From: Octopus vulgaris
Lineage: Eukaryota
DNA length: 64,000 bases
Direction of reading: 5' to 3'
Assembly: GCA_951406725.2 (NCBI GenBank)
Contig: OX597835.1
Location: 38,688,001-38,752,000 of the forward strand
Part shown: positions 10,294 through 36,842 of the stretch, in pieces
Layout: each line of letters starts with the position of its first letter
Numbering within the stretch: the stretch's first letter is position 1
The notes under the pieces: generated by a model
Databases searched by the model: none
The model's input: the letters and a program-made list of their open reading frames with translations, nothing else
What the model was told of the DNA's origin: nothing
Translations under genes and position numbers: made by a program

Positions 10294-10912
10294 CAATAAT
10301 AATAGTGATTGTTTCCTATTAGGAATAAAATGGTTAATAGGACTGCATTTGTTATTGTGCTTGTCTTAATGAAATATTGTTTCATCTTCTGTGATTTTAT
10401 GCATCTGTATTCTATGTATAAGAAAAGAGCATTATGTGATTAAATGTTCGAGATGTGATATGTGGATGACCTTAAATTTGTTGTTAGTTCTACAACTAAT
10501 GTTTGTTATATATATGTGTATATATATATATATATCTGTAAAAAATGAAGTTCGAAAATGCTGCTGTATTATACAATTTTTAATTTTTATATTTACATTA
10601 TAACATGTTTCAGTTCCTGAAATGAACCTTATCAAAAAAAGTTATATATAAAAAAAGACAGCTCATGCCGTCAAACACAAGAAATTCATTTATAATACAC
10701 AACGGAGTCAGACATCTTAGAGTTCATGTATAGTTGATATATAGTTTGAAGTATATGTTCAAAGTGTTCGATGCAGTGGCCCACGGTGGCGATACGTATT
10801 CAATACAAAAAAACAGATCAAAGTGGTGGAAAGCGGTCAATACAGAAGATTGATGTTTCCGAAAGAGCGAGGAATTCATTTTTACCTTAAGCAATTGTGA
10901 TGACCCATGGTG

Positions 10913-10950
<38 letters not shown>

Positions 10951-10952
10951 TG

Positions 10953-11288
10953 TATAGAGGGCATTATTACACCTAAATGCCTCACACTAAGAGGGACAAA
11001 GTCATTACTACCAAAATTACACTAATCATACCTAATGCAGTTCTTCAAAGCAAGACATTTAAAAAACGAATTTATTTCTGTATCACCCGTGATTTCACAA
11101 TTAAAAAATTACGTCTATGATCATCAGCAGAACTGATTCTGAACACATCATAAATAAACGACCAACTTTACCTGGCGAAGACGAACACTCCGGCGAAGCA
11201 CATGGAAATGTTTATAAATCATATATTCGGTAAATGGCGGGCTTTTTCGAACTGCATGTCGGGTAAGAAAAGTATTTCGGAATAAATT
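10953..11288 (-). mobile_element. ~340-nt hammerhead-carrying non-coding element, copy 1
   Basis: Colinear with 36445-36797 (e.g. CTAAGAGGGACAA, CAAAG[C/T]AAGACATTTAAAAAA, TTTCGGAATAAA); 3' end ...GCCCTCTATA next to (TA)n. Confidence 0.8.
11076..11132 (-). ncRNA. Type I hammerhead ribozyme motif
   Basis: UUCUG-CUGAUGA-UCA...UGU-GAAA-UCAC-GG-GUGA-UA-CAGAA: intact core, 5-bp stem I, stem III with a 2-nt loop, weak stem II. Confidence 0.75.
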
Positions 11289-11426
11289 TAACAATTAAGG
11301 ATAACCTCTTAATAAGGAAAAAGGAAAAAAATTATTTTCGAATTCTTTTCTCTTATGAGGTTTTTCATGCTAACTACCTGATAATTTCTTGTTAAGATTC
11401 CTTATTAAGAGGTTATCCTTAATTGT

Positions 11427-11431
<5 letters not shown>
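11286..11431. repeat. Perfect 34-bp inverted repeat around a 78-bp spacer
   Basis: ATTTAACAATTAAGGATAACCTCTTAATAAGGAA (11286-11319) and its exact reverse complement at 11398-11431. Confidence 0.9.
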
Positions 11432-11476
<45 letters not shown>

Positions 11477-11492
11477 TTTATTATATAGAAGG

Positions 11493-11543
11493 AGCTTCTA
11501 CAGGACTAGTACTGTTTCATTCAAGAGAAATCTTCAGGAAGCT
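11493..11543 (-). ncRNA. Type I hammerhead ribozyme motif
   Basis: AGCUUC-CUGAAGA-U-UUC-UCUU-GAA-U-GAAA-CAG-UACUAGUC-CUG-UA-GAAGCU: 6-bp stem I, stem II, 4-bp stem III, GUA cleavage triplet. Confidence 0.8.
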
Positions 11544-11792
11544 ATTTAACAAGAATTGTATTAGCATTTATACATTTAGGCAGGTTTAAAGGAGTGGTGG
11601 TGGGGGACTTTTGGGGGTAGGCATAGCGCAAAATATCATACTTGGGGGAGTGGTCAAGGAGTCAGTGGTAAGTTGAAAGAATAGATAAATAAAAAAATAG
11701 ATAAATAAAAAAATAAAATAAAAATAAAATAAAATAAAAAAAAATAAAAATATATATATATATAAATGTCGAAGCGTTCCATTCACAATCTG

Positions 11793-22033: not shown

Positions 22034-22617
22034 AAGCCAGGAGCTGGCAGAAACGTTAGCACGCCGGGCGAAATGCGTAGCCGTATTTCGTCTGCCGTTG
22101 CGTTCTGAGCTCAAATTCCGCTGAGGTCGACTTTACCTTTCATCCTTTCGGGGTCGATAAATTAAGCACCAGTGACGCACTGGGGTCGATATAATCGACT
22201 TAATCTGTTTGTCTGTCCTTGTTTGCCCCCTGTGTTTAGCCACTTGTGAGTAGTAAAAATATAGGTATTTCGTCTGTTGTTACGTTCTGAGTTCAAATTC
22301 CGCCGAGGTCGACTTTGCCTTTCATCCTTTCGGGGTCGATAAAGTAAGTACCAGTTACGCACTGGGGTCGATGTAATCGACTTAATCCGTTTGTCTGTCC
22401 TTGTTTGTCCCCTCCGTGTTTAGCACCTTGTGGGCAGTAAAGAAATAGGTATTTCTTCCATCTCTTTTAATTTCAGTCCGAATATCGCCAAGGTCGAATT
22501 TAATCTCTAATCCTTGTGAGTTCAATAAAACAACCACGAGTTGAGCACTAGGGAAGATGCAATCGACTAGGATCTTCCCACAAAATTTCAGGCCTTGTGC
22601 CAAGGGTAGCAAGAATT
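22034..22617 (+). mobile_element. SINE family A trimer; last unit has the alternative tail
   Basis: Units restart at ATAG|GTATTTC near 22265 and 22449. Confidence 0.88.
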
Positions 22618-25370: not shown

Positions 25371-25423
<53 letters not shown>

Positions 25424-25455
25424 TTTATTTTAAGCAGCAGAAAATTCAACAAAAT

Positions 25456-25493
25456 CTGTTACTCTGAGTTTCTCGTTGCCGTTCATCAGACAG
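25456..25493 (-). ncRNA. Minimal type I hammerhead motif
   Basis: CUGU-CUGAUGA-ACG-GCAA-CGA-GAAA-CUC-A-GAG-UA-ACAG: intact core, 4-bp stem I, GNRA-capped stem II, quasi-palindromic stem III. Confidence 0.7.
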
Positions 25494-26555
25494 TTTTTGT
25501 TAGAATGGAACTGATATATCAATTCAATCTATACTCTTACAAACGCTACACCTTTAAAAAGAAATGGACTTGTTTGATTGGCCCTTTAGAAAAAACGGTC
25601 AATCTTCGAGCGATAAACAAAAAGGTCAAAGATATATGTATATATATATAAAAAACTTATAAAAATTATATATAAAAACTTATAAAAATTATAAAATCCG
25701 AGGAAAAACCATTGACGTTAATGAAGACAGTGCAAATTAATGCATAGAAATTAAACCTGTTATAAATACTGCAATACATATTTATATTAAAATCTACATA
25801 TATATATCAACATACACAAAAGGATGCGCGTAAACGCCATACATACATATACAGACGTATGAATATGAATTTAAATATACACATAAAAGCATGTGTACAT
25901 ATATTCACGCAAACCGTCTCGCACGCAAGCTAAAATTCATCTATGTAGCAATTCTCATATACTGGGCAAGGAGGGGGAACGAAAGAAAGGGAGAGAGAGA
26001 AAAAAGAAACGAAGGAGGGGTGGGGAAAAAAACGAAATAAGCAGTGTAACGATGTTATTGGCATCTATAGAGGCCAGTATACATACACAAGTTTGAATGG
26101 ATACATATACATACCGTCGTGTATATGTGTGCTTAAGCACAAACATACTTTCACTTGCACATACACAGATACGTATGCTTACAAATACATATGCTTTGCT
26201 ATACACATACTTATATAAACATTCTAATTTTGACAACATTGCTTTTTTTAAAAAACATTGCTTTTAAAAAATGGGTGCATTAATAAAAATATATACGAAA
26301 GACATATAAAATAAAATATAACATCCTATTTTGGGTCATTTATAAATAATCAAGGTAATATAAATAATCAAGGTAATCCTATGCAATACAATAACATGAA
26401 AACAAAGTTTGTAGGTTTTTCCTAATATATATATAGAAACATAAGACTTTGCTATACGGATTAAGATCCACGTAGCTTGGAAACAGAATCCAAATTCATC
26501 GTAGCGCTCAAGAGTCAAAATCAAAATCAAAAATCAAAAATACAAAATATATACT

Positions 26556-26815
26556 CTATCCATATGATATATTTATATTCGACATTTTAAATTTAGCCGC
26601 GTGCCTACATAAGTTCATTAACTCACTTCTTTGATTCAAAGAATTATTGTCTTTGAATAAGATATACATTTTCTCTAATAAACAAAGTCTGCACTTGAAA
26701 TTATTTTTGTAAGCTCCATGCCTGTATGGTGCCGCCCTGTCCAGAATGCTCCATGTCACGTTGAAAGGTGGGGCTTCCTTTTCTTTTAGTTCCCAGACAT
26801 ATTTTGCTAGGCTGG
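26556..26815 (-). pseudogene. Penelope-like element, GIY-YIG endonuclease C-terminal fragment
   Basis: SLAKYVWELKEKEAPPFNVTWSILDRAAPY...CRLCLLEKMYIL...LNQRSELMNLCRH fits the Penelope LSxxxWxLK...CxLCLxEK...LNxRSE...CRH pattern. Confidence 0.85.
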
Positions 26816-26901
26816 TTTTCTTCCTATTCTCTGGGTATTTAAATGAATTTTTATGAGAATAAAATCTTGTTTTAGATGAATTATATATATATATATACAG
26901 A

Positions 26902-36361: not shown

Positions 36362-36444
<83 letters not shown>

Positions 36445-36797
36445 CAATTTTTATTCCGAAAAAACTTTTCCTCTCCCGAAATGCAATTCGTAAAAGTTTG
36501 CCATTTGACAGGATGTAATATATGTAAACTCACCCATGTGCTTCGTTGAATGTTGAACAGTTAGCTGATCGACTTAAGCGGGGCAGGGTCGTTGTTTATT
36601 TATAATGCATTCAGGCCTGCTGATGAGTACGTAAGTATGAAATCACTGTGATACAGGTCTATATATTTTTTAAATGTCTTACTTTGAAAAATTGCATTCG
36701 GTGGGATTAGTAATATTTTTGGTAGAAATGACTAATTGTCCCTCTTAGCGTTTGGCATGTATGTATAATGCCTTCTGGCATGTATATAATGCCCTCT
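36445..36797 (+). mobile_element. ~350-nt hammerhead-carrying non-coding element, copy 2
   Basis: Bracketed by (TA)n; colinear with the reverse complement of 10953-11288. Confidence 0.8.
36613..36660 (+). ncRNA. Type I hammerhead ribozyme motif (near canonical)
   Basis: AGGCCUG-CUGAUGA-GUAC-GUAA-GUAU-GAAA-UCAC-U-GUGA-UA-CAGGUCU: 7-bp stem I with one GU, GNRA-capped stem II, quasi-palindromic stem III. Confidence 0.85.
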
Positions 36798-36801
36798 ATA
36801 T

Positions 36802-36842
<41 letters not shown>

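Follow-up and report, generated by a model that had tools for sequence, protein, structure and literature searches.

A tandem non-coding hammerhead element from Octopus vulgaris with Penelope-type insertion footprints

The window analysed here is a stretch of 64,000 nucleotides from Octopus vulgaris (contig OX597835.1, positions 38,688,001 to 38,752,000), and two stretches within it, termed copy 1 and copy 2, are truncated insertions of one non-coding tandem mobile element with a repeat unit of about 480 nt. At the sequence level, the element conforms to an animal non-LTR retrozyme, whereby self-cleavage and RNA circles are predicted. We regard it as highly probable that it is mobilised in the manner of Penelope-like elements (PLEs), whatever its template, and as probable that it is a PLE-mobilised animal non-LTR retrozyme for which a circle serves as template and a PLE provides the enzyme.

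Copies 1 and 2 can be aligned over their full length, and the subfamilies to which they belong, A and B, respectively, are ~73% identical, which bears out the first-pass annotation, where the two stretches had been described as diverged homologues. The long arm of copy 1 (10949..11319, minus strand) comprises unit positions ~107-478 of subfamily A plus 6 nt, shows 92-93% identity to a typical subfamily A unit and ends beside (TA)n at a fixed 3' end, designated E1. Copy 1 had been delimited as 10953..11288, whereby its continuation as an inverted arm was overlooked (11319..11431, plus strand); this arm covers unit positions ~28-140, the "tail" segment, and ends beside (TA)n at a second fixed 3' end, E2. 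The long arm of copy 2 (36446..36807, plus strand) comprises unit positions 129-481 of the young subfamily B plus ~9 nt and also ends at E1 beside (TA)n; in the search of the octopus genome, copies with 99-100% identity were found on at least 10 other contigs. Comparison with the full unit suggests a possible inverted micro-arm of 8 nt in copy 2 (36442..36449, minus strand), which would carry the E2 end; this assignment is ambiguous, as the direct arm may instead have lost 2 nt. Directly before E1, copy 2 has a hairpin with the stem GGCAU/AUGCC (36752..36798, plus strand), which shows a ~21-nt duplication in subfamilies B and C and reads GGUAU/GUACC in subfamily G.

The family search was carried out in the octopus genome itself (2.8 Gb in 227 contigs). 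Copy 2 as a query yielded at least 47 matches from the best 40 scored candidates, which were 98-100% identical and in many cases 480 bp apart, and copy 1 yielded 52 matches, the full-length ones being 88-93% identical. The tandem period is 478-483 nt, and the unit measures 476-482 nt in subfamilies A-C and ~500 nt in subfamily F. The element had been taken to be ~340 nt long; an AT-rich segment of ~120-130 nt was overlooked, which copy 2 lacks and which copy 1 contains for the most part in the form of its inverted arm. Tandem copies, a search for which had been suggested, were found: the family is both dispersed and arranged in head-to-tail arrays of 2-31 units on many contigs, whereby the longest arm harbors 31 hammerheads. 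The copies were assigned to subfamilies A (copy 1), B (copy 2, the youngest), C, D, E, F, and G. No ORF was found on either strand of the circular A and B units, where the longest stop-free run amounts to 43-62 codons, so that the suggested lack of coding capacity holds with 62 codons as the maximum. An apparent gap of 2.9 kb between hammerheads at 70.54 Mb of contig C1 contains no ORF and holds another tandem family.

A central hammerhead had been read in each copy, and the detailed inspection agrees with this, as both contain a type I motif with the full layout and an AUA triplet. The motif of copy 1 (11075..11133, minus strand) consists of stem I starting from 11133, CUGAUGA at 11127-11121, GAAA, helix III (UCAC-GG-GUGA), and the AUA triplet, after which the cut is predicted at 11081/11080. 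In copy 2 (36614..36659, plus strand), CUGAUGA is located at 36620-36626, stem II reads GUAC/GUAU, helix III reads UCAC-U-GUGA, and the cut after AUA is predicted at 36653/36654. Helix III has 4 bp and a loop of 1-2 nt in both copies. The compensatory pairs of stem I between the copies are present as previously proposed, and stems I and II of copy 2 occur in its predicted single-strand fold. Throughout the subfamilies, the hammerhead stems change in a compensatory manner while the catalytic core stays. Genome-wide pattern counts gave 534 hits for a strict and 2,138 for a relaxed hammerhead pattern, with none for either reversed-pattern control, and 1,786 hits for the 3' motif, with one for its control. 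A search of Rfam with copy 2 at E<=10 yielded three unrelated weak hits and no hammerhead match, and no hammerhead was present among the 150 of 347 matches listed for the whole window. At its base, stem II has a U-U pair in subfamily A, including copy 1, a G-U pair in B, and the usual G-C pair in E152 and F, whereby E150 was left out of this alignment as it is only partly homologous. As the G10.1-C11.1 pair is conserved among hammerheads (PMC4209133), the U-U mismatch implies by analogy that the hammerhead of subfamily A may cleave poorly. Helix III is near-palindromic, as in copy 2, and is a perfect palindrome in part of subfamily G; a palindromic helix III is a trait of hammerheads that work as dimers (PMC4209133).

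The hammerhead is embedded in a larger predicted fold. Single-strand folds were better than 100 of 100 shuffles for each copy, with z-scores of -6.6 for copy 2 and -3.1 for copy 1, and the circular B unit reached -128 kcal/mol, with z-scores from 40 shuffles of -6.0 for the sense and -2.7 for the antisense strand. No pairing between E1 and E2 was seen in the predicted circular fold. The outer helices described as enclosing the ribozyme were located at the given positions in both copies and their compensatory pairs were confirmed; in copy 1 (minus strand), 11232-11257 pairs with 11035-11060 (span 11035..11257), which encloses the ribozyme motif and a long side hairpin. One compensatory pair differs between the copies in each outer helix, namely G-C/A-U and C-G/U-A. 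RNAalifold predicted 50 pairs from 19 real copies, whereby copies within one subfamily are not independent; 13 of these pairs were changed on both sides, and they belong to the outer helices and to hammerhead stems I and II. For a covariation test, the consensus of A, B, or F was folded, its pairs were mapped onto the other two consensus sequences, and double compensatory changes were counted; subfamilies C, D, and E were dropped, being either too similar to B or represented by one copy. Since three deep lineages alone were used, the resulting figures are not equivalent to an R-scape result: 15, 21, and 21 double compensatory changes were counted, compared to null means of 5.9, 6.8, and 8.0, and in each case none of 120 column shuffles reached the observed value, so that the covariation that had been expected exceeds shuffles across A, B, and F. 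Among changed pairs, the fraction kept was 0.41-0.52 compared to 0.33-0.35 in shuffles (6, 0, and 0 of 120 reached it), and 38-48 changed pairs were broken, which means that much of any single fold prediction is not conserved.

With regard to the strand, double compensatory changes were also counted on the antisense strand (12-22), as Watson-Crick pairs must give, while one-sided changes of the G-U type that keep a pair amounted to 19-27 on the sense compared to 4-13 on the antisense strand. After three unassigned segments and segments of <315 nt had been dropped, the sense strand folded better than the antisense strand by 22-39 kcal/mol in six of seven subfamily sequences, with values around 13-15 kcal/mol for D (12.6) and E154 (14.9). 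Since the one-sided changes favour the sense strand, as do the z-scores of the circular fold, selection appears to act on the sense RNA and not on a DNA foldback. Thus, these data point to a larger RNA fold that is under selection on the sense strand and has been kept across subfamilies.

The insertion footprint was tallied for 83 independent insertions from subfamilies A-E. Their outer ends lie at two fixed places: E1 follows GCCCTCTA at a distance of 6-10 nt, and another ~120 nt separate E2 from E1. The elements had been described as ending with this motif next to (TA)n; TA runs do adjoin the ends, but the actual 3' end lies beyond the motif and is one of two fixed 3' ends. By eye, without a count, a TA run was seen after nearly every E1 and E2 end listed. 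Two arms in head-to-head orientation were present in 53 of the 83 insertions, and the other 30 were one-armed at BLAST resolution. Among the two-armed insertions, 45 of 53 combined E1 with E2 and eight had one irregular end, whereas neither E1+E1 nor E2+E2 was observed; the queries favoured E1, which would inflate the E1+E1 class and not mask it. Two fixed 3' ends together with ragged 5' ends are a signature of reverse transcription, and an inversion plus tail within (TA)n is the footprint of PLE-type insertion. PLE insertions carry an inverted 5'-truncated copy and a tail of 30-40 bp on one end (PMC8557442, PMC3846280), and this tail corresponds to the distance between two internal start sites of reverse transcription (PMC11167929). 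A purified anole PLE protein, which is predicted to form a dimer, cuts and extends both strands (PMC11167929). From the end tally, the layout of PLEs in the octopus genome, and these published insertions and biochemical data, we infer that two primed cDNAs were joined at their inner ends.

A single chimera joins the family to an unrelated tandem hammerhead repeat of 353 nt, which forms the inverted arm (locus L099, 2200-6100; contig C1, 70.536-70.540 Mb). The junction shows 3 nt of microhomology and no TA in between, and the 353-nt family has a CUGACGA core and a palindromic helix III. Another copy, 2.4 kb away, has a rare variant in common with the chimera and contains a 29-nt piece of the 353-nt family. 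This single case suggests that both hammerhead families use a common enzyme.

The mechanism that we consider probable would start with transcription of the element, likely as multimers. As in published retrozymes, these are predicted to be cut into monomers by their own hammerhead, possibly as a dimer via the palindromic helix III, and a host ligase would close the monomers into circles, which would accumulate; the predicted circle has ~480 nt and not ~340 nt. A PLE enzyme would then likely copy the element back into (TA)n. It may nick both (TA)n strands and prime a cDNA at E1 and another at E2, which would run backwards round the template over variable lengths of up to 31 units, and joining of their inner ends would generate the inversion. 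More tentatively, each insertion might be the record of a single RNA circle on which a PLE dimer started at two fixed points simultaneously and carried out rolling-circle reverse transcription into the two strands of a cut (TA)n target; the enzyme would recognise retrozymes by shape instead of by sequence in common with its own RNA and would serve unrelated families as in L099, with a viroid-like fold kept through at least six subfamily radiations.

The template was further narrowed down by the inner arm ends, which are spread round the unit, with 3 of 142 arms ending within a few bases of the cut. Since the inner ends are scattered and 53 of the 55 distinct full units matched the hammerhead motif without damage, the template was not a cut linear monomer; the crossing of cut sites is partly due to the choice of loci by hammerhead or E1 queries. 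The template is thus either a circle or an uncut multimer. At 35 loci, with B and C pooled, substitution differences amounted to 2.65% between insertions and 0.68% between the arms of an insertion; within arms the value was 0.17%, to which the long array contributed most. After removal of hits with <90% identity and of clustered mismatches, 62 locus-private substitutions covered by at least two copies were counted at 47 B/C loci, of which 20 (at 13 loci) occurred in all copies, three in some, and 39 in one. Both arms covered 41 private substitutions, and 11 of these were found on both arms and 30 on one arm. Variants that are fixed across the units and arms of a locus suggest that a single monomer template, likely a circle, was read repeatedly; a homogeneous source array outside the sample or later gene conversion would look alike, and with sampling limited to 47 B/C loci a "private" variant may indeed reflect such an array. 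Variants in a single copy or on one arm are expected from later mutation, yet they dilute the monomer signal.

It might also be that the same element and a PLE enzyme are at work but that a source array supplies the template in the form of a multimeric transcript that has not been cut, whereby the hammerhead would be dispensable for insertion or act later. Anole PLE inserts unprocessed RNA in vitro, with ribozyme mutants being inserted equally (PMC11167929), and haplotypes common to several loci (L020/L035/L036 and L021/L026) fit source arrays. We nevertheless consider an uncut template rather unlikely, since the 20 private variants present in all copies call for a monomer bottleneck, or for homogenisation, at some point of the cycle, the ribozyme stems covary across subfamilies, and the predicted fold closes over the whole unit; the intact cut sites fit either template.

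The first-pass annotation had proposed a retrozyme-like or solo pseudo-LTR (pLTR) family under selection for a larger fold. Its retrozyme-like character and the selection on the fold stood up to the analysis, whereas solo pLTRs are disfavoured, because the unit spreads alone and no PLE ORF is joined to it at any examined locus, although linked Penelope ORFs had been looked for as suggested there. Solo pLTR stumps of a not-yet-found autonomous PLE, the fold being that of the PLE end, appear improbable to us for these reasons and in view of bare head-to-tail arrays of up to 31 units and of at least six subfamilies, all without an ORF. This holds despite the PLE-like footprint, the frequent homology of vertebrate retrozymes to pLTRs (24 of 57 Xenopus families; 10.64898/2026.07.22.740005), and a search for PLE families that was not exhaustive; descent of the unit from a pLTR may still apply. 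An origin at the DNA level, in which inverted duplication gave rise to the arms, unequal crossover to the arrays, and the hammerhead was a passenger, is largely refuted and very improbable. A single 31-unit array could have grown locally, and the AT-rich sequence, the missing Rfam match, and the double compensatory changes on the antisense strand would agree with it, but it does not account for the polarity, with 3' ends fixed at two places and 5' ends that are ragged, the better folding of the sense strand, or the catalytic core that is kept while the stems change. Inverted duplication as the sole source of the arm similarity, which had been named as a counter-explanation, is likewise disfavoured by the sense-strand bias of the one-sided changes.

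Candidate partners for the PLE-mobilised retrozyme that we favour are present in the genome. An autonomous PLE with intact ORFs of 727 aa was found via a fragment in the window (25418-26882) and occurs as a tandem dimer at L139; its layout is like that of the unit, with inversions, (TA)n, and two 3' ends 69 nt apart. A second PLE family has an ORF of 781 aa, ends or a tail ~37 nt apart, and a degenerate hammerhead-like motif. We take the former to be Hydra-like and the latter to be Neptune-like, based on motifs and published clade descriptions (PMC8557442) and not on a tree; Pfam assigned no family to the 727-aa protein. No DNA similarity was found between the unit and the 727-aa PLE, seven copies of the 781-aa PLE, or the PLE parts of 30 GIY-YIG loci, and a junction scan revealed no unit-PLE chimeras. 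The only match among the 30 GIY-YIG loci, L180, turned out to be due to an independent insertion of a retrozyme, with ~850 nt between it and a PLE fragment.

Animal non-LTR retrozymes are tandem non-coding units with type I hammerheads, for which circles have been shown in coral, mussel, and axolotl and PLEs have been proposed as helpers (PMC7229834). Vertebrate retrozymes have been tied to PLE pLTRs by distribution and homology in a survey that, by its class list, sampled no mollusc, and in which one of nine predicted Xenopus retrozymes was cleaved and eight were not (10.64898/2026.07.22.740005). The octopus element resembles this class in its tandem non-coding units, each of which carries a single type I hammerhead, its dispersal as monomers to multimers, its highly self-paired predicted circle, and its co-existence with PLEs. 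In contrast, its unit measures 476-500 nt compared to ~170-400 nt (PMC7229834) or 51-972 nt (10.64898/2026.07.22.740005), its helix III has 4 near-palindromic base pairs instead of 1-2 bp, no description of an inversion with two ends was found in those accounts, and its cleavage and circles are predictions. With insertions of endonuclease-bearing PLEs it shares partial tandems, a head-to-head inverted 5'-truncated copy, a tail on one end, (TA)n or AT-rich targets, and a hammerhead upstream of two 3' ends (PMC8557442, PMC3846280, PMC11167929). It differs from them by lacking an RT/GIY-YIG ORF between pLTRs at the loci examined, by its ~120-nt tail compared to the 30-40 nt published, and by the lack of sequence similarity to either of the two young PLE families with which it was compared in its own genome. 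MRC1-type PLE derivatives of Chlamys, a green alga, are also non-coding, multicopy, arranged head-to-tail, and made by PLE machinery, but their 3' ends are similar to those of an autonomous family, and canonical hammerheads are absent from their clade (PMC8557442).

In the literature searched, supplements and most subscription papers aside, no paper was found that deals with retrozymes of cephalopods or with retrozyme insertions that are inverted and two-ended; the supplements of PMC7229834, which list further invertebrate retrozymes, could bear on this. The suggestion that the element is possibly undescribed in cephalopods therefore agrees with that literature, while the class as such is known from a mollusc, the mussel (PMC7229834). 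Taken as a catalogue entry alone, the element would be one further retrozyme family of a known class. For the return of animal retrozymes to the genome, a circle template and a PLE helper have been proposed and not demonstrated, and the young family with its 98-100% identical copies, sharp start sites, intact candidate PLE ORFs, and natural stem variants offers a test system for reverse transcription of a circular template from two primers. Such a step also bears on the unexplained tandem and inverted structure of PLEs.

As to transcription, 20 of 24 listed public runs, from organism A and four other organisms, contain part of the unit (shares ~0.5-0.6), none of them being recorded as RNA. Contigs from four runs cover the unit and cannot show strand, level, or ends, whereby the junction sequence of a circle equals the tandem DNA junction. 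In one 135-nt contig (run X5, contig 26; L031:3011-3052) with a depth of 4.8, about ten A-to-G differences were observed, resembling A-to-I hyper-editing of the sense strand and too weak to count. Matrices derived from the upstream regions of 20 U2 genes in an ungapped, crude search for an snRNA-type promoter scored no unit clearly above shuffles. The U2 genes themselves (L271-L290) show, ~57 nt upstream, three upstream types with a common ATCAGT core at the same distance, which is a candidate proximal sequence element.

Several other repeats were observed in the window. The fragment at 25418-26882 (minus strand) is a 5'-truncated copy of a young and abundant PLE with a minimal hammerhead near 25490. 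The region 10520-10915 (minus strand; compare L204-L210) is the 3' end of the second young PLE family and lies directly past the (TA)n that flanks copy 1, and at ~11470-11560 (minus strand) a further short PLE-type end with a minimal hammerhead-like CUGAAGA motif is present, which also occurs in L199, so that three TA-targeting elements lie side by side in the neighbourhood of copy 1. Finally, positions 1215-1804 and 22083-22455 harbor head-to-tail arrays of 3.2 and 2 copies, respectively, of a ~183-bp SINE-like repeat.
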